Of a DNA stretch of 64,000 bases, positions 12,421 to 64,000 are shown piece by piece. The stretch comes from Eledone cirrhosa (taxonomy: Eukaryota), in the NCBI GenBank assembly GCA_964016885.1, contig OZ024746.1, positions 88,412,001 to 88,476,000 of the forward strand, written 5' to 3'. The notes below the pieces were generated by a model, which had not been told where the DNA came from, searched no databases, and was given only the letters and a program-made list of their open reading frames with translations. How positions within the stretch are numbered: the first letter of the stretch is position 1; each line of letters opens with the position of its first letter. Both the position numbers and the translations under genes were made by a program.

Positions 12421-12737
12421 CTGTGTGTGTATATATGTATATATATAGTGTGTATATATATATATATAGTGTGTAACGTTTTTCGAAATATTTACTTCTG
12501 CGTTCACAGATTAATTATTTCAGTTTCAGAAGATCCCGTTAAAGGTGAAAGCAGCGATTCTTTGCTTAAACTTTAGTCTGTTATTTTAATATATATATAT
12601 ATATATATATATGTATAATTATATATTCGTGTACAGATATTTTTGCTTACACAATAACAACATATATACAAATGTACTTATTTCACGAGGCTCGATAAGG
12701 ATAAATATATATCAAATATATAAGAACCCTAGAGCAA

Positions 12738-12766: not shown

Positions 12767-13959
12767 TATATATATATAATTTGGTGTGGGATGCTTAAAG
12801 CGTCCGTATGTTGTAGGCCATTTGAGCACTCGATGCTCCTCACGTAAGAAACTGAGAATCAATGTTGCGACGAATTAACATTTATGAGACATATTACAAT
12901 CGTTACTCTGGCGACCAGCTCGAGGCACGATCGATGCAAGGATCGAACTGACTCTGAAATCGCAAGATCCTCAGATACATCTCGATCTGTCGAAGCAGTT
13001 TCCAATATATATATACATATATTGAAGGTATATGTTCATATATATATATATATATAAGTAGAAACACATATATGTGTTGTGACCATCCTTCACCAGGTTT
13101 TATGTGTTATATAAATAATTACTTAATCAGTAAATTATATGAGAAGAGAAATTAGACAAAATTATACCTAATTTTTCTGCAAATCGCGATTAATAAAATA
13201 TCAGGCAAAAGACTAAAAAATAGAGAATAGTTGCAGATATGAATAACTTATCGCATTATATAGCACGTCAACAGAACATGAACTCAGATGTGTTACAAAT
13301 ATTATATGTTTTTTGACAGAATACTAACATTCCGATTATGAATTCATAATCGGAAAGTTGCTATTTTTTCAGAAACATCTAATTATTATAACAGAGCTTC
13401 TGTTCTGTTGACTTGCTATATAATTCGATAAGTTATTCATATCATCCATTATCGTTTATTTTTGAGTATTTTGGCATATTATATTAGTTGAATTTCATTT
13501 TAATAAACTCTCATGATTCCTAGGGTTAGTACTAAATAACATCGGTCTTTGTGGTTGGAGCGGTGTTATTCACACTGATAAACATTGGGAAAATCCTGGA
13601 AACGTTGTGGTTGTTGCTGCTATTACTGTTGTCATTCCCTTTCAGAATTTGGTATGTTCCATCTATGGTTACCTCACCATTCCGTTTTGAGGACGCAACA
13701 TCTTTGTTCATCATCTTTTATTTTTCTTAGAAAGTAGAGGCGTGTGTTTGAAAGACAAACGCACGTTTAGCCCCTAATGATTTCAAGTAGAGATAAACTA
13801 CACATCTCACTAAGATATTGGATCAAAACAATAACATTTCAAGGAAAGATGTTTCAATAACTGGGAAAACATAACTTGCACGAATGATTTAAACCTTGTC
13901 TTGAATGATTGAACAAACATAAGAGCTACATGAACATCAACATTAACATAATGCAGCAG

Positions 13960-14199: not shown

Positions 14200-14390
14200 T
14201 AATTTAGTCACATACCAGCAATTTTGGGGTAGGGGAAAGTCGCTTAAATCGCCACCAGTGCATTTATCCCACTCAATTCCTGGTGTTTTATTTTACCGCC
14301 CCCGGCGGGTTTTGAACTCAGAACGTAAAGCGCCATAACTTTATGCGGCGAAGCATGGCCTCCGACTCTCTACCGATATTACCAATCCAT
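14200..14390 (-). mobile_element. tRNA-derived SINE, diverged copy
   Basis: Reverse complement contains the A-box-like ttggtaatatcggtaga, the B box gagttcaaaacccg and the family tail. Confidence 0.6.
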
Positions 14391-15930
14391 CAGTCGGTGA
14401 ACAATTTTTGTCTTGGGAATTGTATTTTATATTATCGACTCCGGATTTATGAATGGAAGCCTGTTCTCGGCAGTATTGAAATCCAAACATTAAAGCCCAC
14501 AAAACATACCCCATGAGGTATTTTGTTTGACGCTTTTATAATTTGTTTTCAATTTTACGATCTGTTTGATCTCGGCGCCATTTGAATTTAAAGTGCCATA
14601 ATCCATTAAACATAACCCATGCCAGTCTATCCAGCACTATAATGTCTGTTAATTCGTCGCCTGGTTTCTAATTATTCGTTGTAATATTAGGTTTTGGGGG
14701 AGCGGGAAAAAAGAATAACTTCAGGGACTATATTTTATTGACACCGGATGGAAGAAAGACAAAGTTGACATTAGCCGGATGTTAACCCTCAAACAGAAGA
14801 TTGGAACAAAAAAGGTGAACCTTTTGTTAGACGCTGTAAAATTAAAAATGTTTTGTCTGCACAAGATAATTTAGTTACTCTTTGAATCTTTGTCCTTGGA
14901 AGTGTGGAAAGATTTGACAATTAAATTAATTTCTGCTTGAAAATTTCACAATATTTGTTTTCTTTTCTTCCCTCATTCCTTCATATTCATTCAAATTTTA
15001 CTAATTAGAGAATTGTTAGCGAACACTTTGTCTGCAATTCTCTTATCTAACTGAGAGCAAATGTCTTTAAAATACCATCATCAATATCTATAATCTTTAG
15101 GAATTGTCTTAAAATTTGAAACAAAATAAACTGTGACTAATATTTCGAGAAAAAAAAAATATCTGGTATATGAAAGGACATTTCTTTGTGTGCGTGTCAG
15201 TGTTTGTGTAGGTGTATGTGTGCGCGTGGATATATAGTGACACATGAATAACGTCAAAGAGAAAAAAAAATACAGAAACATTGGATCACTTTCTCACACT
15301 TCATCGAGAGACTAAACTGAAACGACAACATAAACAATTATCTGAAAATATAGCAAGAAGATATGCCAAGAATGCAAAGTGCCAACATTATTAGATACAT
15401 CAATAACGATATAAAATATGAAATGAAACACGCAATTAAATACAAACATTACAAAACATAATAGCAAACGACCGTGTTATGATATATATAATATAAAAGT
15501 TTGTGTCAAGAAGAAATTACAATTATAATAAACAAAGTCAATAACAAGATTGATATAAATGTAATACGCCAATTAAATACATAAAACAAAACAGAAAAAA
15601 TAACTCCCATAACAACATCATTAGAAGTTTAGGAATTAAAGATTCAAGCTTTCTGTCGTTACAGATAGGTGAAACGATGAAGATATATTTCTGTTTATGG
15701 ACAAATACAGATCCTTCCTTGATGAAGTCATTGCATCGTCTAAATGTAGTTAAGTCTGATGGTAGACATCAATGAAAACGTAGAAATTGACCATTTCACA
15801 TGGAAAGGATTGATAGGCTGGAACGGTGAGCCCGATCGAAATTCGAATGGAGATACATTAGATTCTGTTCTAACAATGGACTCTCTATTATGAACACATA
15901 CACATCAATAAATATGCATTGTATATATAT

Positions 15931-16457
15931 ACATACTACTGTATGTCTGTATACATATATGTATGTACGTGTACATACTTATATTTAAGTAACAGCCGTA
16001 CTAAGTGTGGGAAATGAAATTTCGTTCCATTTTTTCTATTTATCGTTTTCAGTGCACCCGGCCGATTAACCCACTCGATATGCAAATTGGGCTGCTCAGC
16101 CGTTAATGTGCATAAGGTAAGTATATACGTTCAACAATCTGGCAGGAAGGTATACGTTGCTGACGATAGCTAATAAGCTTGAAACTAGTAGAGCGTTCCT
16201 TTGTCAGTGTTGAACAAACGAGCAACGATAGTTGCTGGACACTACGGTTTAATACGGGATGTTTGTTTACAAACACACCGAGCATTATAATAAATGTTCG
16301 GTGAATCCATACGTACATATATATATATGTGCATGTATGTATATATATATACATACTACTGTACGTATGTATACATATATGTATGTACGTGTACATACTT
16401 ATATTTAAGTAACAGCCGTACTAATGGAGGAAACGAAATTTAGCTTCATTTTTTTCC

Positions 16458-16460
<3 letters not shown>
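15931..16460 (+). mobile_element. Retrozyme-like non-coding element, family A copy 1 (~1.25 x 420-nt monomer)
   Basis: cagccgtactaa repeats at ~15993 and ~16413. Contains an HHR, has no credible ORF and ends in (TA)n. Confidence 0.75.
16154..16196 (+). ncRNA. Minimal type I hammerhead ribozyme (family A)
   Basis: acgttg-CTGACGA-tagctaataagctt-GAAA-ctag-TA-gagcgt. Palindromic stem III ACTAGT, GUA cleavage triplet. Confidence 0.85.
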
Positions 16461-16494
<34 letters not shown>

Positions 16495-16500
<6 letters not shown>

Positions 16501-17098
16501 TATGTATATATTTATATATATATAAGTATGTATACGTACATATATATATGTATACAGTAGTATGTATATATATACATACATGTACACATATATACATGTA
16601 CGCATGGATTCACCGAACATTGATTATAATGCTCGGTGTGTTTGTAAACAAACATCCCGAATTAAGCCGTACAGTGTCTAGCAACCATCGTTGCTCATTT
16701 GTTCAACACTGACAAAGGAACGCTGTACTAGTTTCATGCTTATTAGCTATCGTCAGTAACGAATACCTTCCTGCCAGATGATTGAACGTCTGAATGTATA
16801 TACTTTTCTTATGCATATTAACGGCTGAGCAGCCTAATTTGCATATCGAGTAAGCTAATCGGCCGGGGTCCCGAAAACAATAAACGGAAAAAATGAAACG
16901 AAATTTCATTTCTCACTCTTAGTACAGCAGTTACTTAAATATAAGTATGTATACGTACATACATATATCTATACAGACGTACAGTAGTATATATATATAT
17001 ATATATACATACATGTACACATATATACATGTACGCATGGATTCACCGAACATTTATTATAATGCTCGGTGTGTTTGTAAACAAACATCCCGAATTAA

Positions 17099-17105
<7 letters not shown>
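16495..17105 (-). mobile_element. Retrozyme-like element, family A copy 2 (~1.4 monomers), HHR at 16720-16762
   Basis: Reverse complement of copies 1 and 3. cgcatggattcaccgaacat repeats at ~16601 and ~17034. Minus-strand CTGACGA..GAAACTAGTA-cagcgt. Confidence 0.75.
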
Positions 17106-17673
<568 letters not shown>

Positions 17674-18875: not shown

Positions 18876-19224
18876 ATTCTTCGTTTGGCAGTTTCAGGCT
18901 CGTCCACAACACAACCTCTTCCACAAAAGCCACCAGGCACTGGAAAACAGCCAGCCCTTTCCGGCCCCCAAAATACGTCAGGCTGATCTTCACTATGGAC
19001 GCGATCAATCACCAGATCTGTCCCACACGCGATAAGAATTGTTCGACTACATCAACAAGTCAATATCATAGTCAGGTTCGATTAATTCTGTGATATCATA
19101 CTCTGCTTTATGAGAGCCCGAGTGCTCAAGCGGCCTGTCGCAAACGGACGCCCTAAGCATCCAACACCAATTATATATATATATAAGGGGGTGTTAAAGT
19201 TTGCTTGAAGCATTGTGAAATATG

Positions 19225-19554
19225 TAAAATATGTAGTTTAGAAAGCCACAACAATGCAGATGGGAAATCTCGAGGTAGGAAGTGAATGAGAAATAGGAGA
19301 AAAGTGAAAATTGAGAGAAACGGAAAAACAACTTTCTCCGGCTTAGCCTGTACCCCCCCCCCCCCTTTTGGAACTTTCCCCCCGTTGATGGGCGTGAGCC
19401 CGAAATATTGGGATTAAATCTCCACTACGGTAACCCTTCTACCTTTGTTTTGTTTTCGTTTTTTCGTTTCTCTCAATTTTCACTTTTCTCCTATTTCTCA
19501 CTCACTTCCTACCTCGAGATTTCCCATCTGCATTGTTGTGGCTTTCTAAACTAC

Positions 19555-19562
<8 letters not shown>
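19225..19562. repeat. Fold-back element: ~105-bp near-perfect inverted arms around a ~120-bp spacer with a degenerate HHR (19377-19413)
   Basis: aaaatatgtagtttagaaagccacaacaatgcagatggg... versus ...cccatctgcattgttgtggctttctaaactacatatttt. The spacer has TTGAT-GGGC-GTGA-GCCC-GAAA-TATT-GGGA. Confidence 0.75.
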
Positions 19563-19595
<33 letters not shown>

Positions 19596-24670: not shown

Positions 24671-24709
<39 letters not shown>

Positions 24710-24710
24710 C

Positions 24711-24749
24711 CACCTACGTACGTTTCGCCCAGTTGGGCTTCTCAAGGGC
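24711..24749 (-). ncRNA. Minimal type I hammerhead ribozyme, U3-A8 core variant
   Basis: Minus strand: gccc-TTGAGAA-gccc-aact-gggc-GAAA-cgtacg-TA-ggtg. Perfect stem II, palindromic stem III ACGTACGT, weak stem I. Adjacent to (TA)n. Confidence 0.7.
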
Positions 24750-25082
24750 ATAAATAAACAAAAGTGTTCCTTACATTGCTCGGAAAGAGTTGTTCGGGTT
24801 ATATTTCACCTCAAGATTCATTGCTCGCAAAAATAGCGTGTTTTGATTTTGAAGCAGGTCCAGGGAGGTAATTATGGCCGGTGTTAGGGCAGTCTTTCCC
24901 GGTAACATTTTTTATCCGTTATAATATGTTGTTACAACCTTACCATTATCGATACGCACAGTGTCATGTAATCAACGCATGTAAATAAACTTTGGCATAC
25001 GCTACTTGGCAAATAACTAGATGTATACCCAATCCTCCATTTTTTCTCTCTCTCGATACGTAAATACTGTATATATATATAT

Positions 25083-25767
25083 ATAATCAAGGTTTAGCAA
25101 ATAAGATAAAGTTTCAAAAATAAATTTTTAAAAATTAACTGTACTTACTATGGTTACCTTTACCGATTCGGTTTCGATTCTCAAAAATAAACGGAGTCCA
25201 TACGGCCTTCGTTGCAAAGAAAGAATCTCGTCAGAAGGTTCTTTTCATTCGGAGAAAATAAAATTCTCGAATTCAAATTACGAACTGGCGCTATTCAAAA
25301 TTGTTCCCGAGATGAGAGTAAATGAAGTGGAATCAATTTTTTCAAGGGCCGAGTGTAAAGATAAAGGCAGAGGCAGAGAGGTCAGATGGCTACTGCTATA
25401 ACTAGCAGCAGTCAGAACGACCAAATTTTTCTCAACATAGAGGAGGTAATAATAATAGGATATGTGTTCCTACACGCACAAGGCGCTAAGGGACACATGT
25501 ATCGTCCAACCATATGCCAATGTGCTTCAATGGCAGGTTAATAAATTAACGAGCCAGAACATATATAATCAAGATTTAGCAAATAAGATAAAGTTTCAAA
25601 ATAAATTTTAAAAAATTATTTTGAAACTTTATCTTATTTGCTAAACCTTGATTATATATGTTCTGGCTCGTTAATTTATTAACCTGCCATTGAACCACAT
25701 TGCCATATGGTTGGACGATACATGTGTCCCTTAGCGCCTTGTGCGTGTAGGAACACATATCCTATTA

Positions 25768-25768
<1 letters not shown>
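25083..25768 (-). mobile_element. Retrozyme-like element, family C (~482-nt monomer) with ~315-bp terminal palindrome
   Basis: tttagcaaataagataaagtttcaaaa recurs at ~25093 and ~25575. 25452-25768 is a near-perfect palindrome centred ~25610. Contains a canonical HHR and is flanked by (TA)n. Confidence 0.75.
25156..25239 (-). ncRNA. Canonical type I hammerhead ribozyme (family C)
   Basis: Minus strand: acctt-CTGACGA-gattct...agaatc-GAAA-ccgaatcgg-TA-aaggt. All three stems pair, GUA triplet. Confidence 0.9.
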
Positions 25769-25807
<39 letters not shown>

Positions 25808-26023
25808 TTTAAATAGAGGTGTGACACACGAGATGTGATATATTATTAAAACGGAAGAGAAAATGCAAACACATTTTCCCAGTGAAAGATAGTTTAATTG
25901 GGAATAAGTATAAATTAGCATTAAGTATTATTTAGTATTCAGTTTTAGTTTTAAGTTTTTACGGTTTGCGCATTTCTTATGCTTTCCAAAATTGATTTTG
26001 AGATAGAATGCTCGTGACTTTTG

Positions 26024-26102
<79 letters not shown>

Positions 26103-26109
26103 TTAATTC

Positions 26110-26300
26110 AAATAACAGATTAAAGTTTAAGCAAAGATTCGCTGCTTTCACCCTTATCGGGATCTTCTGAATTTCAGAAGATCCCGTTAAGTGTGAAAGC
26201 AGCGATTCTTTGCTTAAACTTTAATCTGTTATTTTAATAATTATTAGCTCTACGGTTCTTATATATTTGAAATATAGTTATGCTTATCGAGCCCTCTTTT
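26110..26300. repeat. Family E palindromic element with HHR-like motif
   Basis: ~125-bp palindrome centred on ttctgaa|tttcagaa (~26171). Each arm has CAGAAGA-tccc-gttaa-gggt-GAAA. Related copies at ~12520-12735, ~20725-20790 and ~42930-43120. Confidence 0.7.
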
Positions 26301-26792: not shown

Positions 26793-26919
26793 AGAAGTTT
26801 ACATACACACAAACTAGACTGAGCCATAGATATATATATATGCATATGTTTTTGGCAACCATTCACAGTGTGGCTCAATGACGAATTAATTAATTAAATA
26901 ATCAACAATCAGAACAATA

Positions 26920-27455
26920 TATAAGAAAGTAAGTCCATAGAATCATTAGATAAAATATATACAGTATTTCTTCTCCCAATTAGCATAGTCAACCATACAA
27001 AAAATCATTTAAACGAAGCTATAAGTTTAAAATATATGTAGAAATAATAGATAAATAAATGATAGCTTTTTATCTGCGACACATAGCCACAGAAAATGTA
27101 CCTAGTATTTCTGATAGCCTGTAGAAATTGACTAACATATATACATAACCATACATAATTAGGTACAAAACCCAAGTTAGATGAAAAAATGTACATAAAC
27201 ACCAAAATTATCAAAATATATCTCTAGCCCCCGGAGGTTTCATTCGGTTTTTGGACATAATCGATCTTGGATAAATCTAACGAGTTTTGAAATCATCAGG
27301 AGACAAACTATCATTTATTTATCTATTATTTCTTCATAGGTATATTTTGAACTTATAGCCTCGTTTAAATGATTTTTGAATGGTTTATTATGCTGATTGG
27401 GAGAAGAAATACTGTATATATTTTATCTAATGATTCTATGGACTTACGTTCATAT
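26920..27455 (-). mobile_element. Family D fold-back element: ~145-bp inverted arms enclosing an HHR (27221-27303)
   Basis: Arms 26920-27066 and 27308-27455 are reverse complements. Minus strand tctc-CTGATGA-tttc...gaat-GAAA-cctccggggg(c)-TA-gaga. Another arm copy at ~49322-49432. Confidence 0.7.
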
Positions 27456-27461
27456 ATATAT

Positions 27462-27838: not shown

Positions 27839-29498
<1,660 letters not shown>

Positions 29499-29499
29499 T

Positions 29500-30320
29500 C
29501 GAACTAAAGAACACCAGACTACGATCTCTAACTGGATTGTCGTGGATTATGTGAAAGGCATATAATCGAAATATACACTCCCTTGACCATGAAAATGCCG
29601 AAGTACATGAATTACTTGACATCCCTGCGTTGTGCATCTCCAATACTTATAACACTTTTAATGCTTGCACTATCTTTAATACTTATAATATTTCTCCACA
29701 CACAGACTACATCAATCATATAAAGACTTTGCCACCAGATCTACCAACCTAACACTCTTATTTACCTACCTAAGTGCCTCTACCACACATATCTCTCTGC
29801 CACACTATATAAACAAGACGCACATGCGTGCCACACATATAACATTTGCACTATATAACCACTTATCTTCATGTTGTACTTTAACCTATATCTTTGATTT
29901 TTGATTGTACCTATTAATATAAATGTAATCTCGAAGTGTGTACTGCCACTCTAAATTTTGTAATGAATGTTGACCCACAATGTTTGAATATGTATCAATG
30001 TTTGAATATGTATTGGTATGTCTCTCGGCTGAAAAGGAGGTCATATAACTGTCCATGCATTAATAAATTGCTCCGAAGAATCCAAACCTCGGTTTGGAGG
30101 AAACAGCTGTAAGCACAATAATGTTTTGAACAGTTCTTTGATTCTTATATTTCATATAACTGCTCTGTAAATCATCTGATGTTTTTACATTGAGCTACTT
30201 AACTTACTGGTAATAAGGTAGTAATACATTACTGCCTACCACTATTTAGGGTGTGTGTAGAATACTTACAACTGCTTAAGGTTTTGTGTTTACATAACCA
30301 TAAATAGTATAACTAATACT
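29500..30320 (+). mobile_element. 5'-truncated PLE 3' end (endonuclease tail remnant plus pseudo-LTR)
   Basis: Remnant peptides RTKEHQ and CERHIIEIYTPL resemble the GIY-YIG tail. HHR at 30069-30115. Ends in (TA)n. Confidence 0.55.
30069..30115 (+). ncRNA. Type I hammerhead ribozyme motif (U4C substitution)
   Basis: tgct-CCGAAGA-a-tccaaac-ctcg-gtttgga-g-GAAA-cagctg-TA-agca. Palindromic stem III ACAGCTGT. Confidence 0.75.
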
Positions 30321-30680: not shown

Positions 30681-31224
30681 GAAAAGTGTAATTTTCTACA
30701 CAAAACGAAGGTTATAGAGAAAATTGAGGTTGGTAATGGCACATGGAATATATAAGAGACAGAATACTTTTTTGTGAAAAAACATAATTTTATAAGGTAA
30801 GGAAATAATAAAGGGTATAAAAAATGACCGGTTTCGATGGGTCTGCAAAAGCCATCTTTTCAAATGTTGATTAATATTAAGAAAAATTAATAATACGAAG
30901 AGTTAAAATTTGAGACTTGAAAATTCAAGTATAAAATTCATTGTGGGATTTCATAGCAGTTTTCATCTAGGTAGCAACAACAGGTTGACTGCTGTGTCCC
31001 TTTCTGGTAGTGAATGAGAAGTTATTTGGGGTGTGGGTTATTTTATAAAGGTCAGATTTAGCAATCACCAACTGGCCAGCTGCTGGTCAGTGAGGGGGTG
31101 GAAGCAATATACATACACATATCTTCCTGTGGTGGGTAGGAGAGTGGAGCGTGATAGAAAGGGATTTAGTGCACTTACACCTATATATACACACATACCT
31201 TCATCCACACATACATACATATAC

Positions 31225-31261
<37 letters not shown>

Positions 31262-31326
31262 CACACATACATACACACACACATACATATACATACACAC
31301 ATACACACACACACATATATACACAT

Positions 31327-31373
<47 letters not shown>

Positions 31374-31440
31374 TATATATACATACACATACATCCAGAT
31401 ACACACATACATACACACACACACACACACATATATATAT

Positions 31441-31484
<44 letters not shown>

Positions 31485-31588
31485 CCACACATACATACAC
31501 GCACACACACATATATATATATACATACACACATACAAACATACACACACAGACACATATATATACACACATACACACACATATATAT

Positions 31589-31623
<35 letters not shown>

Positions 31624-31648
31624 CACATACGCATACATCCAGATACCC

Positions 31649-31691
<43 letters not shown>

Positions 31692-31739
31692 CAATACATA
31701 CATCCACATGCACACACATACACACACACACACATATAC

Positions 31740-32738
31740 ATGATAAACAACATAGATAATAACATACAATTCACAATGGAATCCAATCCTAAGGAATTAG
31801 CCTTCTTGGATATTCTCATCTCTGTAATAGACGGGAAATTAGATACAGATATATTCTATAAACCCACAGATTCCAAGCAATACCTCTTTTTCACATCAAG
31901 TCACCCAAAACATACAAAACTTAACATTCCTTACAATTTGGCCAAACGTATATGTACCATAGTATCAGATCCACCTAAACGGGAGCAAAGACTAAAGGAA
32001 CTAAAAGACACCCTTATCTTAAGAGCCTTTCCACTTGAAATAATCAACAATGGAATAGACAGAGCAAAACACCTAAATCCCCATCAACTTAACAATCCAA
32101 AACAGAAAACCACACTCAACACCCTGCCATATGTATCCACTTTCAACCCCAGAAATACCGAAATGTTTGATCACCTACACAAAAACCTCCCCATCCTACT
32201 TAAAGATGTAAAAATGAAGTCTATTCTTGAAACACACAAGATCCTTAAAAGTAAAAGACAACCCAAATCACTTAAACGCATTCTCACTGGACCAAATATA
32301 CCCAAACCAATCCTCAACCCTACAGTTACCAAATGTGGTAGAACAAACTGTGGAACGTGCCTCTACCTCACTGAAGGACAAACATTTACATTCAAAGATG
32401 GCCAAACATTTACAGTAAAAAACAATTTCACCTGCAACTCGGAGAACTTGATTTACGCAATAACTTGCGGTGGGTGCAAACACAACTACATAGGACAGAC
32501 GGGCACCTCATTACGCAAAAGAATGACCATCCACCGCCAACAAATCCGGGACGCTAACACAAGAAAAATCCCCTTGAGCAGCCATATTGCGAACTGCGCA
32601 GGAATGACACTACCCAACTTTAAAATCTTCCCCTTCTACAAGTGCTCAGATTCGTTCACACAGCAACAAAGAATAAACAAAGAAAATCTATTCCTTAACA
32701 AATTTAAACCAAAACTAAACGGGTTATCACCCCAATAG
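31740..32738 (+). CDS. PLE polyprotein C-terminal half: RT motif 7/thumb, Cys-rich linker and GIY-YIG endonuclease (no YxDD centre)
   Basis: IQFTME..LAFLDI..TDIFYKPTDSKQYLFFTSSHPKHTKLNIPYNLAKRICTI (PLE RT C-terminus); CGRTNCGTC linker; NLIYAITCGGCKHNYIGQTG..RKRMTIH..SSH..KENLFLNKFKPKLN (GIY-YIG with CCHH). Uninterrupted 332 aa. Confidence 0.9.
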   Translation: MINNIDNNIQFTMESNPKELAFLDILISVIDGKLDTDIFYKPTDSKQYLFFTSSHPKHTKLNIPYNLAKRICTIVSDPPKREQRLKELKDTLILRAFPLEIINNGIDRAKHLNPHQLNNPKQKTTLNTLPYVSTFNPRNTEMFDHLHKNLPILLKDVKMKSILETHKILKSKRQPKSLKRILTGPNIPKPILNPTVTKCGRTNCGTCLYLTEGQTFTFKDGQTFTVKNNFTCNSENLIYAITCGGCKHNYIGQTGTSLRKRMTIHRQQIRDANTRKIPLSSHIANCAGMTLPNFKIFPFYKCSDSFTQQQRINKENLFLNKFKPKLNGLSPQ

Positions 32739-33269
32739 AATTGTCATAAAATATAAACACACATACGCACGGAATCACTACTATTAAAGACCAGAGACCA
32801 ATTCTGTAGAATCAGGTTTATTCATTGACAGACCATGCCTTTGTGTGACCAACACATCCATGTTAAACCCTGCACGTGCACACACATATATCTATATATA
32901 TATGCGCACACAGAATTCACCACTGTCGGTTGCGGGGCCCAATCTACATGAAGAACTCAATGTGATCAGAATGACTTGTATTTTAATTTCACTGCCCCAA
33001 CTTCTTATATTATGGAAAAAATATATGTGTCTGTATGTATATATATATATATATATTTGAAGGCCATTTCTCTGTGTGTGGGTGTATGTATGTGTATATG
33101 TGTGTGTGTGTGTATGTGTGTGCATGTGGATGTATGTATTGTGTGTGCGTGTGTGTGTGTGTGTGTGTGTATGTATGTGGGTATCTGGATGTATGCGTAT
33201 GTGTATATATATATGTGTGTGTGTGTGTGTGTATGTATGTGTGTATCTGGATGTATGTGTATGTATATA

Positions 33270-33326
<57 letters not shown>

Positions 33327-33782
33327 ATGTGTATATATGTGTGTGTGTGTATGTGTGTATGTATATGTATGTGTGTGTGTATGTATGTGTGTATATGTAT
33401 ATATATATATATATATATATGTATATGTATATGTATGTATGTGTGGATGAAGGTATGTGTGTATATATAGGTGTAAGTGCACTAAATCCCTTTCTATCAC
33501 GCTCCACTCTCCTACCCACCACAGGAAGATATGTGTATGTATATTGCTTCCACCCCCTCACTGACCAGCAGCTGGCCAGTTGGTGATTGCTAAATCTGAC
33601 CTTTATAAAATAACCCACACCCCAAATAACTTCTCATTCACTACCAGAAAGGGACACAGCAGTCAACCTGTTGTTGCTACCTAGATGAAAACTGCTATGA
33701 AATCCCACAATGAATTTTATACTTGAATTTTCAAGTCTCAAATTTTAACTCTTCGTATTATTAATTTTTCTTAATATTAATC

Positions 33783-33830
33783 AACATTTGAAAAGATGGC
33801 TTTTGCAGACCCATCGAAACCGGTCATTTT
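33783..33830 (+). ncRNA. Type I hammerhead ribozyme, U3-A8 variant, in Neptune pseudo-LTR
   Basis: aacat-TTGAAAA-gatgg-cttttgcagac-ccatc-GAAA-ccgg-TC-atttt. Palindromic stem III ACCGGT. Mirrored at 30821-30868. Confidence 0.7.
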
Positions 33831-33934
33831 TTATACCCTTTATTATTTCCTTACCTTATAAAATTATGTTTTTTCACAAAAAAGTATTCTGTCTCTTATA
33901 TATTCCATGTGCCATTACCAACCTCAATTTTCTC

Positions 33935-34022
<88 letters not shown>

Positions 34023-42885: not shown

Positions 42886-43603
42886 TATATATATATATAG
42901 TAATAATAATAAATGCGAAGGGTAAAAACAAAGAGGGCTCAATAAGGATAAATATATATCAAATATATAAGAACCCTAGAGCAAATATGTTTTAAAATAC
43001 AGATTAGAAGTTTAAGCAAAGAAACGTTTCTTTCACCCTTAACGGGATCTTCTGAAACTTAGAAGATGCGGTTAAGGGTGAAAACAGCGATTATTTGCTG
43101 AAACTTTAATTTCTTATTTTAATATATATAAATAACTTCAATAATTGTTTCTACTTTAGGCACAAGTCCAGCAATTACCCAGTCCATTACTGGTACTTTA
43201 TTTTATCGACCCCGTAAGCATGAAAGGCAAAGTCAACCTCGGCGTTATATATATATATATATAACTTCAATAAGGTTGGCCTATACTCCCTTACGGTAGT
43301 GTAGAAAATTGGGCTGAAAGGGTCAGCTTCTAGTAGATCTGATACACCCAAACGATGCGTCCTTTTTTTACTCTTCTTGTTAACCATAAAGCACGCATTA
43401 TTGATCCCATTAAAAGATGTAAGAAAACTTGAATTATTTTTTTCCTACATAGAGGAGTCTCCTAAGGGGGATATGAACTCAGACCTAATACTACCCTGAA
43501 ATATTAGAATATCCAAGCCACAACCTGCACGGCGAAACTACAGTTGGGATATTGAAGCCAATTGGGGATGTCTTTATCTTGCTTGCTTTTACCAAATTAT
43601 GAT

Positions 43604-47067: not shown

Positions 47068-47500
47068 ATAAGTATGTATATATGTATATAGACGTACATT
47101 AGTATGTATATACATACATAAATGCACATATATATATATATATATGTACGTATGAGTTTACCGAACATTCATTATAATACTTGCTTTGTTTGTAAATAAA
47201 CAGCCCGAATTATTAGCCGTAAAGTGTTCGGCAACCATCGTTGCCCTTTTGTTCAACACTGACAAAAGAACGATTAACTAGTTTCTAGCTTATTAGCTGT
47301 CATCAGCACCATATACCTCCCTGTCAGTCGATTGTACGTTTGAAAGTATATACCTTCCTTATGCATATTAACGGCTGAGCTGTCTAGTTTGCATATCGAG
47401 TGAGTTACACGGCCGGGTGTAGCGAAAACGATAAATGGAACAAAATGAAATTTCATTTCTCACTCTTACTACGGCTGATACTTAAATATAAATATATATA

Positions 47501-47581
<81 letters not shown>

Positions 47582-47633
47582 ACAGACGTACAGTAGTATG
47601 TATATCCATACATACATTCGCACACACACACAT

Positions 47634-47695
<62 letters not shown>

Positions 47696-47806
47696 GTATT
47701 GCTTTACCGAACATTCAATATAATGCTCGGTTTGTTTGTAAACAAACAGCCCGAATTATTAGCCGTACAGTGTTCTGCAACCATCGTTTCCCTTTTGTTC
47801 AACACT
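47068..47806 (-). mobile_element. Retrozyme-like element, family A copy 4 (diverged, ~1.3 monomers), HHR at 47270-47310
   Basis: ccgaacattc..aaacagcccgaattattagccgt repeats at ~47161 and ~47707. Minus strand ggtg-CTGATGA-cagctaataagcta-GAAA-ctag-TT. Confidence 0.75.
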
Positions 47807-47959: not shown

Positions 47960-48837
47960 ACAATATATTAGACTGATTGCACCATCTAAATCGGACCTTG
48001 GCATACATAGCAAGAATATTCTAGATATAATCATACCACAACTTAAGGAAATATCTTATTTAAAATTTGGAAAGGGACTAATGAACTTATTGACTGATTA
48101 AAGGACATTAAATATAAACATAACAATAAATCCATTCAATTGGATATTGCTAATTATTACTCACCTATCACTCCTAATTTACTTAATAAAGCCCCTACAT
48201 ATGAATTTAAATATACTGATTTAACTAACAATGAAATGCACATTATCTTAGCTGCACGTAAAACATTAATTAAATTTAGCAACCACCTTTGGACTAGAGC
48301 AGATAGGGATAACAATTTCGATATCACTATGGGGTCATCGTACTCGTCGCAAATAACGGATCCTGTGGGGCTTTTTATTAACAATACTTTACATAAGAAA
48401 ATACCAGAGATGACCGGAGGTTTATATAGTGACGATATGCTATTACTTATTGAAAATAATAATAATTGTGAAATAAATAGGAAAAGAAAAGGAATTATAC
48501 AATTTTTTAATAGCTTTAATCTTAAAGTAGAAGTAGAGAATAATTATAAAATAGTTAATTTTTTAGATGTCACTTTAAACCTTAATACTAGTCTTTATTA
48601 TCCATTTCATAAAATCAATGAGAATTTAAACTATGTTAACTTTAATTCCAATCACCCCAGATGCGTTAAAAACACTATTGTAAATTATGTGCAGCAACTT
48701 ATTTCTAGAATTTCAGCGAATAAAAATATATGTGTAGATAAGGCACAATATTATAACGAAGCGTTAAGTAGAGCAGGCTATAGTAATAACATTAAATACA
48801 TTGATAATAAGGATGTGCCAATTAACCATAACTATTA
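47960..48837 (+). pseudogene. Naiad-type PLE reverse transcriptase fragment
   Basis: RLIAPSKSDLG..SKNILD, DIANYYSPI, FDITMGSSYSSQITDPVGL, GLYSDDML, KIVNFLDVTLNL, YVNFNSNHP and YNEALSRAGY match Naiad RT motifs. Frameshift and stop upstream of 48140. Confidence 0.85.
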
Positions 48838-49229
48838 TTTTAGAAAATTTAAAGTAAGTGAGACTGTCACTACTCTAAAACAATAGCTTAAGGTCTTCGA
48901 AATGCTTTTAATTAAGCATACAATGTATTGCAAAATACCCTATATATATATATACATTCATATATATATCGCTATTTCAAAGAACCAATTCTAAATTTCA
49001 ATTTCCGCTCGACCGGCAACCGGTCTGTATAATCAGTTCCTGATTATTACTAGAATTCTATAAGAATCAAACATTCTTAATTTTCACTAAACAGATGGAG
49101 TAGTTAGCTTTGATAAGTACCGAAAAGTACGCAACAGAGCTCTGTCAGCTTTATATCCCCTGTTTTAGAAAATTTAGAGTAAGTGAGACTGTCACTACAT
49201 TAAAACAATAGCGTAAGGTCTTCGAAATA
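48838..49229 (+). mobile_element. Retrozyme-like unit, family B (~325-nt monomer, ~1.2 copies) abutting the Naiad RT
   Basis: ttttagaaaattta.agtaagtgagactgtcactac...taaggtcttcgaaat at 48838 and ~49163. HHR 49106-49150: agct-TTGATAA-gtac-cgaaaa-gtac-GCAA-cagagctctg-TC-agct. Confidence 0.7.
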
Positions 49230-49685: not shown

Positions 49686-51493
49686 ATAATGAGAGAACGT
49701 AATATTATATATATATATATAGCGTTAAGTTATAGGTATACATACATTTCTTTATCTGAGGCTAAGTACACAATCGACTGGTAAATCGAACGTTTGGCTT
49801 GAGAAATGCTGGAGGTCGCTTGAATCATGTACAATTTCTTGTTCTGTTGCTTGATGTTACCAACATCAAGCCCGACTATGTAAGCATTACTTTTTTATCT
49901 TCGCTACCCTTGTGATCGATCATTGTATTCACATTATATTTCATTTTATTTGACAAGTTTCCATAACAAAATTCATCTCATGTTTTCCACTAAGATATAT
50001 TTAACGAATCAATGTTCGTTTTCTACCACCTGGAAAATATCACAGGCTTATCTCAATATTTAGATGTTACAAAACACAATCTCATCAAAATGGAATTAAC
50101 TAATACAAATATTGAATTATTTTGACAGCAATGCTGTTGATATTACGTAGTTTTTATATTTTACTATGTTACGTATAATAAAGAAAGGAGTGCGGGACGG
50201 CCTCCTGTTTTATCCTGTTTGTATAATAAGTTGGATTACTTTGACTAAGTAATGAATGAATATTACATAATGTATCTACTAAATTTCGTAACTCCTGATG
50301 AATTATATGTTATTGCTTATTTAAAGATTCACTTTAAACTTTTCAAATGTCAACATTTCCGGTTAGCGATCGCTTATTTTAACATTCATATATTTCCGTC
50401 AATAATGTTTTTCCTAATGCAGTTTATATATAATATCGTCTTTTTTAAATGTATCATGGATTACTTTCCATGTTACATCAGATAGTGTAACGCAGACTTC
50501 GTTTAATTTCTGTGGATATTGTCAATTACGATTTTATTTGACATATCTATAAGCCTATATATTTGCGTATCTCAATATGCGGACTACATATGCTAGCAGA
50601 AAATCACCGTGCAGGTTGTTTTTTGCTAATACCAATAATAATTTGAAATCATTCGAGACTGATAGAAGATACTAGTTATTTTCAAAATCAGAAAACTTGT
50701 CAGCATCCTTGACAGTGAAGAAAATACAGACACGGCAAAATTATGTCAGGTGGGTTTGTGCTTTAAGGCAACGAATAAAGTATCCCAGCCATATAGATCA
50801 TAGTGTTTAATATAACAATCTATCGAATTTGACACTTTCAAAACTATGCAGCTCAATGACCTTGGACTAATTCATTGTTTTATCGTTGATGAAAGGCAAA
50901 TTTAGATGTGGTGGGATTTGCCCTCAGAGCGTGGGGAGCCAGATCAAATAGCGTAATATATTTTGTAAAAGTCTCAAATGATTGTGCAGAGTCATCGCCT
51001 ATCATAGGCTCAGGGGGAGAAAAATAATAACTTAATATTTTATGGAAATATTCTTTTGAACACGAGGAACAGTGACAAAATGGTAAATGCTGTTTGTTAT
51101 CAAAGTTTACATTCAGATGCGTCTGTCAAATAAAGCCATGTAATTATGGAGATTGCGTTCTTTTTAAGGGTAATTCATCATTATAAATATTCGTGGTAAG
51201 TGGCTTTCGATGAGAGACAACTGATCCAATTAGTTGACAGCTAGCTTTGTGAATTAAAATTGAAGATGGCTATCATGTAATATTTGTGTATATTGTTTTA
51301 TATTTGGCATTTGCTAAATAAATGTCGAACATTCATGTTCAGTGTGATGATACAAATTGTCTCTACTACGAAACATTAATACCCAGCAAGCATTTGTATT
51401 GTTCCTCGAACTACCAATGCACTCAACATACATATCTTTCTCAATTCTCACGAATTAAAGAACGCTATTTTTTCGCAAATTGATGTTGTTTAG

Positions 51494-52353
51494 ACTCCTG
51501 CCGTCTATGATGTGAATTGTTCTAACATTCACGGACTCCTGCCGTCTATGATGTGAATTGTTCTAACATTCACGGACTCCTGCCGTCTATGATGTGAATT
51601 GTTCTAACATTCACAGACTCCTGCCGCCTATGATGTGAATTGTTCTAACATTCACAGACTCCTGCCGTCTATGTTGTGAATTGTTCTAACATTCACAGAT
51701 TCCTGCCGTCTATGTTGTGAATTGTTCTAACATTCACGGACTCCTGCCGTCTATGATGTGAATTGTTCTAACATTCACAGACTCCTGCCGTCTATGTTGT
51801 GAATTGTTCTAACATTCACAGATTCCTGCCGTCTATGTTGTGAATTGTTCTAACATTCACAGACTCCTGCCGTCTATGTTGTGAATTGTTCTAACATTCA
51901 CAGATTCCTGCCGTCTATGTTGTGAATTGTTCTAACATTCACGGACTCCTGCCGTCTATGATGTGAATTGTTCTAACATTCACAGACTCCTGCCGTCTAT
52001 GTTGTGAATTGTTCTAACATTCACAGATTCCTGCCGTCTATGTTGTGAATTGTTCTAACATTCACGGACTCCTGCCGTCTATGATGTGAATTGTTCTAAC
52101 ATTCACAGACTCCTGCCGCCTATGTTGTGAATCGTTCTAACATTCACAGACTCCTGCCGCCTATGATGTGAATTGTTCTAACATTCACAGACTCCTGCCC
52201 TCTATGATGTGAATTGTTCTAACATTCACAGACTCCTGCCGTCTATGTTGTGAATCGTTCTAACATTCACAGACTCCTGCCGTCTATGATGTGAATCGTT
52301 CTAACATTCACAGACTCCTGCCGCCTATGATATATGTCGCTCTAACCTTCACA
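51494..52353. repeat. 41-bp minisatellite, ~21 copies
   Basis: Unit gactcctgccgtctatgatgtgaattgttctaacattcaca with few variant positions and no unique spacers. Confidence 0.95.
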
Positions 52354-61743: not shown

Positions 61744-63030
61744 TATATCACACACGCACATGCATACATACACCTATATATATACACACACACATATGCA
61801 CACATAAATACACACAAGTCTGTACACATATATGTACATACATCTACTCAAGCGTTTAAGTTCACATATACATTGGTGTGTGGGAAAGGGGGGATTAATT
61901 AAATGTTAGTGTACCTCTGAGGGCTTTTCATCTCTTCAGCGTTCGAATGTGTGAAAGTACGGGTGTCATCAACTATTTTTCTCTTTCAATATGAGATTTT
62001 TTTAAAGAAAAGAGAGGGGGAGAATCCCGTTACTTGAAGATGGAATATCACTTTTTTTGTGTTCAGTAGTGGTTTGTATTTTCTAATAAAGAATTCTTCT
62101 TTATATTTTCGGAAATGTTCATTTTTCGACCATATCTTAAAGAAGAGGAACATTGTGAATTGTCCCTTTCCGCATGATGCGAAGTGTTCACTGCGCGTGG
62201 CTTTTCTGACAGAGCGGTCTCTAATTTGTTGTTTATGTACTCAAACTCATGTAGACCCCTTCCGGATTCACCAATGTAGTATTCCTTACATTGTGGGCAG
62301 TTTGCACAGTAACTCAAGTTTCTGGTTTTACAATTCATGTTTGCATTAACTGTGAAAGACTGTTTGTTTTTAAAGGAGATTTGTCCACACGGTACAATAT
62401 CTTCGAACGTTCCGCATCGAGGGTCCCCGCATTTCTTAATTTGCATTGCTTCATTATTAGACGTAAATATTGACTAGGCAAACAGTCTCTTTAGATTGGT
62501 GCTTGGCGTCTACTATATATAATTTGTGCGTCTTTGATGAGTGCATTCATTTTAGGGGACTGCTGGAGAATCTGGAGATATTGTTTAGCGGCTTTCACAA
62601 TGTTGAAGTTCCTTGGATTGTGAGTGAGGACAAAAGGGATAACTGTTTTATCTATTCTATTTTGTTGCTTGGTTTTTCTCAGTGGTGTCACTCGAAAGAT
62701 GGCTGTGTTGATGAGGTTCACCGGATATTCTTGTCTTTTAAAGAATTCTTTTAATTCATATAATCTTTTTTTCCTGTAGTGTGGGGTGTGTTACTATGGT
62801 GCAGATGCGTGTTGCCATCATTAAGGAAGTGGAAAATATCAAAACGGTCTCATTTTACAAACCAACAGACACACACCAATACTTGAATTTCCGTTCAGCA
62901 CACACATCACATACCAAAAGGAACATTCCTTTTAACATGGCAAGACGCATCTGCACCATAGTAACACCCCACACTACAGGAAAAAAGATTATATGAATTA
63001 AAAGAGTTCCTTAAAAGACAAGAATATATA
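60790..63030 (-). mobile_element. Degenerate Neptune-type PLE with inverted RT segment
   Basis: Minus strand RICTIV..IPFVLTHNPRN..RRQ..KCGDPRCG..NCKTRNLSYCANCPQCKEYYIGESG (62060-62816, frameshifted). Plus strand FYKPTDTHQYL..NIPFNMARRICTIV (62820-63026). Degenerate HHR at ~60877-60923 (minus). Confidence 0.8.
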
Positions 63031-63128
63031 TAGAGAGAGAGAGAATACGGGAAAAGGTTTGGGCTCGGCCAGGTTTCAAATATCCTACAAGCGCTGTATG
63101 ACAATACGCTTGCCTTACAACTCCCACA

Positions 63129-63492: not shown

Positions 63493-64000
63493 GTCAAACG
63501 TAATAATTGTTTTTTATTTGGCACAAGGCCAACAATTAGTCCAGTCCATTACTGGTACTTTATTTTATGGATCCCGTAAGGAGAAAAGGCAAAGTTAACC
63601 TCGGCGGGATTTGGACTCACACCGTAATGGGACGTAACTCTATGCTGTAAAGCATGCCCTTCGACCCGCTACCGATACTGCCAATCCACCGTCAAATGTA
63701 ATAATTGTTTCTATATTTGGCACAAGGCCAGCAGATATTCCAGTGCATTACTGGTACTTTATGTTATCGACACCGTAAGGATAAAAGACAAAGTTAACCA
63801 CGACGGGATTTGAACTGAGGCCGTAAAGAGCCGTAACTCTATGCTGGAAAGCATACCGTCCGACCCGCTACCGATACTGCCAATTAACCGTCAAATGTAA
63901 TAATTGTTTCTATATTTGGCAGAAGGCCAGCAATTATCCCAATGCATTACTGGTACTTTATTTTATCGACACCGTAAGGAAGAAAGGCAAAGTTAACATC
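63493..64000 (-). repeat. Head-to-tail tandem array of SINE-containing ~198-bp units (runs off window)
   Basis: gtcaaa.gtaataattgttt precedes each SINE copy at ~63493, 63691 and 63890. Confidence 0.85.

Follow-up and report, generated by a model that had tools for sequence, protein, structure and literature searches.

The locus at 25083–25768 of a 64,000-nt stretch of Eledone cirrhosa DNA (GCA_964016885.1, contig OZ024746.1, positions 88,412,001–88,476,000; hereafter the window) carries a hammerhead ribozyme (HHR) motif next to a long palindrome. What kind of repeat is this, is its ribozyme likely to work where it lies, and how did the element come to be capped by an inverted copy of part of itself?

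The layout of the locus is given in Table 1. The element order of the original prediction for the minus strand, namely inverted(X-Y), X-Y, unique part, HHR, X and (TA)n, was right. A unit of ~482 nt had been claimed, and the two direct copies of X are indeed spaced by 482 nt, with 95% identity over 59 columns; a third copy, inverted, lies at 25602–25659. The palindrome, put beforehand at ~315 bp and near-perfect, measured 317 nt. Its arms (25452–25609 and 25611–25768) are complementary at 154 of 158 pairs, with 4 mismatches, and the spacer, expected to be almost absent, is a 1-nt centre at 25610. This centre falls in a 17-nt AT quasi-palindrome that is also found in the terminal X. TA runs adjoin both ends of the element, (TA)8 at one end and 25766–25790 followed by T20 at the other, in a window that is AT-rich throughout and has many TA microsatellites. 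The RNA fold of the palindrome was predicted at −264.6 kcal/mol (z −41.9), equalled by 0 of 100 shuffles. The HHR lies outside this hairpin region. Service of the locus as a hairpin/siRNA source is structurally possible, judging from the predicted fold. An Rfam match to MIR841 (86 bits against a cut-off of 200) merely reflects the long hairpin.

Table 1. Features of the focal locus, in window coordinates
Feature	Position	Strand	Remarks
TA run (TA)8	25070..25085	.	3' end of element; likely insertion target; last 7 nt common to X
Full 482-nt repeat unit	25079..25560	-	RNA order Y, unique part, HHR, X
X, terminal copy	25079..25137	-	Element 3' end
AT quasi-palindrome, 17 nt	25121..25137	.	Native to X; 7/8 pairs
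Type I hammerhead (HHR) motif	25156..25239	-	Stem III self-complementary, 25162-25172
Unit part occurring once at the locus	25240..25451	-	
Y	25452..25560	-	Unit part copied again in inverted arm
X, second copy	25561..25618	-	Partial tandem / pseudo-LTR; ends 23 nt short of next HHR cut-site position
Quasi-palindrome joining both arms	25602..25618	.	Centre 25610
Inverted arm	25611..25768	+	RNA-sense copy of X-Y on plus strand; 3 substitutions vs left arm outside centre
(TA)12 then T20	25766..25810	.	Other side of likely target; AT-rich microhomology with arm end

Hammerhead motif and element class

The motif has the type I features: a CUGANGA core, GAAA, an NUH triplet and three helices in type I order. 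On the minus strand the core reads CUGACGA (25234–25228), followed by GAAA and with the triplet GUA, and the cut is predicted between 25161 and 25160. Stems I to III are paired, as had been claimed, over 5 bp, 7 bp (including one G-U) and 4 bp, the last with a 3-nt loop. The ~40-nt loop described on stem II was confirmed in size (38 nt, 25183–25220) but not as an open loop, since an internal loop plus a hairpin is predicted within it. A pattern scan of 128 kb returned this as the sole type I motif. Among 200 block-wise dinucleotide shuffles of the window, none held the strict pattern and 2 the loose one. The 96-nt HHR fragment had the same stability as its shuffles (z −0.12). Rfam gave no hammerhead at gathering score in the window and none among the 31 rows at E up to 5. 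A pattern scan of metagenomes yielded 14 matches, 0 of 14 being homologous to the unit (best E 0.01).

Four of ten listed sequencing runs were compared with 24830–25560, a reference that contains one X, at 82% likeness. Three were from the host species: X1 and X2, both contigs from one sample, and X8, RAD reads from another sample and study. Records on the reference numbered 1679 of 17.1 M (X1), 1600 of 16.3 M (X2) and 2365 of 12.5 M reads (X8), and spanned all identity bands and all 30 bins. The head-to-tail joint from 25560 to 25079, a step back by 482, was found in 8 contigs of X1, 13 contigs of X2 and 18 reads with 9 starts in X8, and so in three of the four runs. Summed depth of this joint was 472 and 1156, compared to about 0–15 for letters apparently private to the focal copy, where depth in the runs is no measure of copy number. 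A total of 109 X8 reads run on into (TA)n before 25070. Of the matched material in X8, 82% continues unlike the reference (read-end pile-ups left out). Judged from these records, the 482-nt junction is plainly common to other copies, and the unit belongs to a family with many variants in the host species. In the runs the short head-to-tail unit was seen as junctions, with no full arrays. The run of another organism (B) gave 12 contigs, all only partly on the reference, with no homologous unit shown; small shares of matches were also listed for organisms B, C and D.

Two family variants touch the ribozyme itself. At 25225, in stem II, the family majority (92% of depth in X1) has another letter than the focal copy; the partner position 25178 is absent from the 40 of 187 rows displayed. 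This difference would speak against family-wide conservation of the focal HHR fold. One base is missing at 25167 or 25168 in 74 of 679 and 167 of 613 X8 reads. By our reading, its loss would make stem III a perfect palindrome.

No coding remnant of a Penelope-like element (PLE) was found in the unit. The best tblastn match to 120 PLE proteins had an E of 0.021, and a PLE protein profile gave it negative scores, while two controls from the same window reached 84 and 72 bits; the profile covers mainly the C-terminal part, and a decayed N-terminal remnant could be missed. The longest ORFs in the unit were 83 codons (antisense) and 33 codons (RNA sense), with no RT or EN similarity, and no ORF combining RT and GIY-YIG was found there. 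A sigma-70 promoter scan found 4 matches against 7.6 expected, a chance level and irrelevant to an animal.

With no PLE coding remnant, a family of many variants and a junction recurring in three of four runs (two samples), the element is very probably a non-LTR retrozyme, a 482-nt hammerhead-bearing repeat family, and the original prediction of a retrozyme is upheld. It was likely mobilised by a PLE RT/GIY-YIG enzyme. Its autonomous partner was sought among three RT/PLE remnants and other tested window repeats, with which the unit shares no DNA (BLAST, 0 of 6 targets, E up to 0.1); the neighbouring PLE remnants are therefore not shown as that partner. As in animal non-LTR retrozymes, we find a short head-to-tail unit, a GC content of 0.37 (about 37%, below the 45–50% criterion), one type I HHR, no detected coding remnant and PLE remnants in the genome. 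The available text of Cervera and de la Pena 2020 (PMC7229834) gives RNAs of 170–400 nt and repeats of 150–450 bp. The focal unit exceeds this range but lies within the 51–972 bp of retrozyme repeats in the available part of Li et al. (bioRxiv 10.64898/2026.07.22.740005), who argue there that retrozymes are non-autonomous PLE derivatives. Unlike the active retrozymes in that part of Li et al., the focal copy has one HHR only. The word 'inverted' is absent from the available text of PMC7229834. Among the papers listed in literature searches on octopus and cephalopod ribozymes, none was on such a hammerhead family.

Could the unit instead be the end (pseudo-LTR) of a long autonomous PLE rather than a stand-alone retrozyme? 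In its 5-bp stem I, 7-bp stem II and palindromic stem III, the motif resembles the PLE hammerheads in the available sections of Cervera and de la Pena 2014 (PMC4209133), and retrozymes match pLTRs in Xenopus according to the accessible part of bioRxiv 10.64898/2026.07.22.740005. Recurrence of the 482-nt junction in two samples and the lack of a coding remnant in the unit nevertheless make this unlikely. Unlike the PLE hammerheads in the same sections of PMC4209133, the focal motif has a helix III of 4 bp that makes a monomer fold possible, no extra base before stem II and a 38-nt stem II extension. The retrozyme and pseudo-LTR readings overlap if the unit is a PLE deletion derivative.

Predicted fold of the ribozyme

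The fragment 25150–25245 was predicted to fold into a hammerhead, with mean pairing probabilities of 0.72, 0.77 and 0.42 for stems I, II and III. Stem I had predicted probabilities of 0.85–0.72 in short fragments. The value dropped to 0.00 once the 3' side was longer by 10 bases, once the upstream unit was included in full, or when the RNA was modelled as a circle; the model leaves out tertiary contacts and protein help. Pairing of stem III between two copies was predicted at −13.6 kcal/mol, compared to −2.0 kcal/mol for the hairpin. HHRs with a long helix II, a short helix I and a palindromic helix III are described as dimer-type and weak in vitro in the available sections of PMC4209133.

The motif had been put forward as the best candidate for an active ribozyme here. 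This is now doubtful, because the locus has one HHR only, because native flanks are predicted to abolish the fold (stem I falling from 0.72 in 25150–25245 to 0.00) and because stem III shares its self-complementarity with dimer-type HHRs. Cleavage of the short fragment would therefore not show activity in place. Li et al. set two consecutive units with complete HHRs as their criterion of an active retrozyme, where the focal locus has a single HHR. A lone HHR cannot release a monomer or circle, and the focal copy is predicted to release neither. The available part of Li et al. reports cleavage in only one of nine tested retrozyme dimers.

Origin of the palindrome

The locus has the features of a PLE-type insertion, with a partial tandem, (TA)n flanks and, on its 5' side, an inverted piece; PLE remnants in the window have such features too. 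No empty site was seen. According to the available text of PMC8557442, PLEs insert as partial tandems, frequently accompanied by a 5'-truncated copy in inverted orientation, and show a bias to microsatellites and (TA)n. In the accessible part of PMC11167929, a purified PLE protein is shown to cleave AT-rich DNA and to extend both of its strands, with synthesis starting at internal positions of the RNA and with uncut RNA as the main template. The focal copy resembles the insertions of PLEs with a C-terminal GIY-YIG, as far as these two texts describe them, in its pseudo-LTR, its inverted 5'-side piece and its (TA)n target. From the HHR cut to its 3' end there are 76 nt, compared to 85–92 nt in the anole element (our own subtraction from the accessible part of PMC11167929). 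Unlike PLE insertions, the focal unit has no ORF and its inverted piece no spacer. The inverted piece also starts at an internal site, whereas that of the PLE at 30713–33938 starts at the element 3' end.

We consider it probable that the cap arose at insertion. It would then be the insertion scar of a retrozyme copy placed in a (TA)n run by a PLE enzyme. The unit, the repeated head-to-tail junction, the TA ends and the HHR motif are all observed. For the exact route, we see about an even chance that both target strands primed reverse transcription and that the two cDNAs joined at the short palindrome native to the unit. At 540 nt or 1.12 units, the first cDNA (25079–25618) extends past the cut site, which suggests a multimeric or circular RNA template in which the copied HHR had stayed uncut or been re-ligated. 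From the other target strand, synthesis would have begun internally, at the AT-rich site 25452, either with a second RNA as template or through strand displacement. Both cDNAs would have stopped within or close to the 17-nt quasi-palindrome, with 23 nt left to the next HHR cut site; pairing at this place and fill-in would have followed, and the arms would then have mutated separately. L1 twin priming gives rise to a 5' inversion through internal priming by the second target strand. The same internal second-strand priming is proposed here, with the difference that the focal inverted part duplicates 158 nt rather than replacing them. A literature search joining twin priming with Penelope gave no paper on PLE mechanism, judged by title.

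The original prediction had favoured a fold-back self-priming or template-switch event during reverse transcription. Inversion during reverse transcription is likely, but self-priming fold-back as the only route does not hold, given a PLE inversion elsewhere in the window. At 62040–63059, a decayed PLE on the minus strand has an inverted 5' piece that overlaps the direct piece by ~90 nt, and it ends in a short TA run. The inverted piece corresponds to residues 170–238 of P0001 and the direct piece to residues 228–475, with upstream coding sequence only in the inverted piece. Because that upstream sequence is missing from the direct piece, the first cDNA cannot have been the template of the inverted piece. 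Second-strand priming is thus supported inside the window. Among seven local inverted repeats (picked by hand from 23 rows), five have one arm running straight into a TA run. The spacers of these five are 1, 128, 209, 369 and 1864 nt; the values 209 and 369 were obtained by ungapped extension and are too large. The focal cap can be read as the spacerless extreme of such a series.

At the focal locus itself, a fold-back would have the first cDNA turn back on the quasi-palindrome, copy 150 nt of itself and jump to the (TA)n target end. This is possible, though we think it less likely than priming on both strands. The first-cDNA end, and with it the palindrome centre, is one of 5 of 511 positions, in 3 places, that would let the 3' end of a cDNA form a fold-back of 7 or more pairs. 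A 1-nt spacer is natural for this route, and the arms have private letters in common; the zero spacer and the shared private letters fit fold-back equally well. The DNA hairpin is, however, weak (−1.1 kcal/mol), the same hairpin at 25137 was passed without folding, and fold-back cannot explain the 62–63 kb inversion, so that a second mechanism would be needed. We accordingly favour second-strand priming on RNA over cDNA fold-back, a choice that one copy cannot decide.

A further role for the quasi-palindrome is conceivable, to which we attach little likelihood. The AT quasi-palindrome, 23–40 nt downstream of the HHR cut, would be a built-in joining site: the ribozyme would make the 5' end of a linear template, and cDNAs would stop and pair there. 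The family would thereby yield self-complementary caps, whose read-through would be a 158-bp hairpin that could silence its many copies. Were this true, the locus would record in DNA that linear HHR-cut RNA, and not a circle, was the insertion template.

A palindrome of this kind might also be an assembly or library chimera, which we regard as improbable. None of the seven joints listed in the four runs compared is a strand change, leaving the palindrome without read support although X1 and X2 may contain the locus. Inverted PLE structures are known to trouble assemblers, as the available text of PMC8557442 notes. Depth of the copy's own letters in X1 and X2 was low (about 0–15 at private-looking sites), with holes. 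Short-read contigs and libraries cope badly with long palindromes and the records were filtered, so the missing strand-change joints weigh little. X8 had fewer than 3 strand-change reads, compared to 18 for the tandem joint, which argues against the cap being a common family feature; it looks one-off.

The arms themselves argue against a chimera, which would mirror the left arm. Three substitutions between the arms lie away from the centre and seem to be divided over both of them. The C of the left arm at 25525 accounts for at most 46 of 100,132 depth in X1, and the family letter is found in the right arm. The terminal X matches the right arm but not the left at 25574. No majority difference was seen at 25517 among the 40 of 187 rows displayed, from which we infer that this change probably lies on the right arm. 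Both arms carry the same non-majority letters at 25503 and at the site equivalent to 25107, and polishing with family reads would erase such shared private letters. The arm also ends cleanly in the TA run, like other inverted pieces. Mismatches that apparently fall on both arms favour a real in vivo event. An origin after insertion, by replication-fork template switch at the AT quasi-palindrome, is very improbable: the centre coincides with the quasi-palindrome and there is microhomology at the distal joint, but a second switch exactly into the TA run would be needed and the same end geometry recurs at PLE remnants.

The main traits of the locus are all already in print, as both the class and the insertion architecture have been published, and the cap is an ordinary insertion scar. 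The focal locus alone is modest; its value is that it opens the way to a large hammerhead family. A genome-wide count of inversion starts and ends would bear on how PLE tandem and inverted ends form, and equally on whether the PLE template is HHR-cut linear RNA or circles.

Neighbouring elements in the window

The PLE at 30713–33938 is 5'-truncated and has an inverted copy of its own 3' end on its left, 518 bp of which is 100% identical. The ORF remnant at 31770–32735 has a GIY-YIG domain (E 3.2e-06) preceded by a CX4CxxC motif, and its best named homologues (2 of 120 rows shown) were from the octopod Argonauta hians, at 52% identity, which suggests a cephalopod host. The available text of PMC8557442 links CX4CxxC with Neptune and Nematis elements and considers a part in (TA)n targeting possible. 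Near 33785–33825 there is an HHR-like motif whose stem III is palindromic and whose core is altered. At 48098–48886, a 262-codon stop-free stretch resembles a fragment of PLE reverse transcriptase; it had no Pfam match and matched none of the 120 PLE proteins at E 1e-5.

A second hammerhead repeat family occupies 15930–17560 and 47146–47806 as a direct and inverted cluster with TA-rich ends. Its cores lie at 16160 (+), about 16760 (−), 17271 (+) and 47306 (−), and stem I looks imperfect in the copies read. The left neighbour of the focal unit, 24705–25069, is a diverged copy of another abundant repeat; it ends in (TA)16, has the same orientation as the focal unit and contains a degenerate HHR-like motif on the minus strand near 24715–24745.

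Further local inverted repeats lie at 19220–19567 and 26917–27459, which both end in TA runs, at 27873–29500, with 127-bp arms free of mismatches, and at 13191–13486. A second zero-spacer palindrome, with 66-bp arms, sits beside (TA)37 at 26106–26238. Its copy at 43003–43110 is also palindromic and a half copy lies at 12524–12586, so this looks like a family trait. A 41-bp minisatellite spans 51492–52331 (20.5 copies, 95% matches). A ~200-nt repeat with tRNA-like boxes, probably a SINE, recurs at 14300, 22876, 35016, 35952, 36731, 43133, 43994, 54808, 59032, 60314 and 63493–63997, in tandem at the last of these sites.
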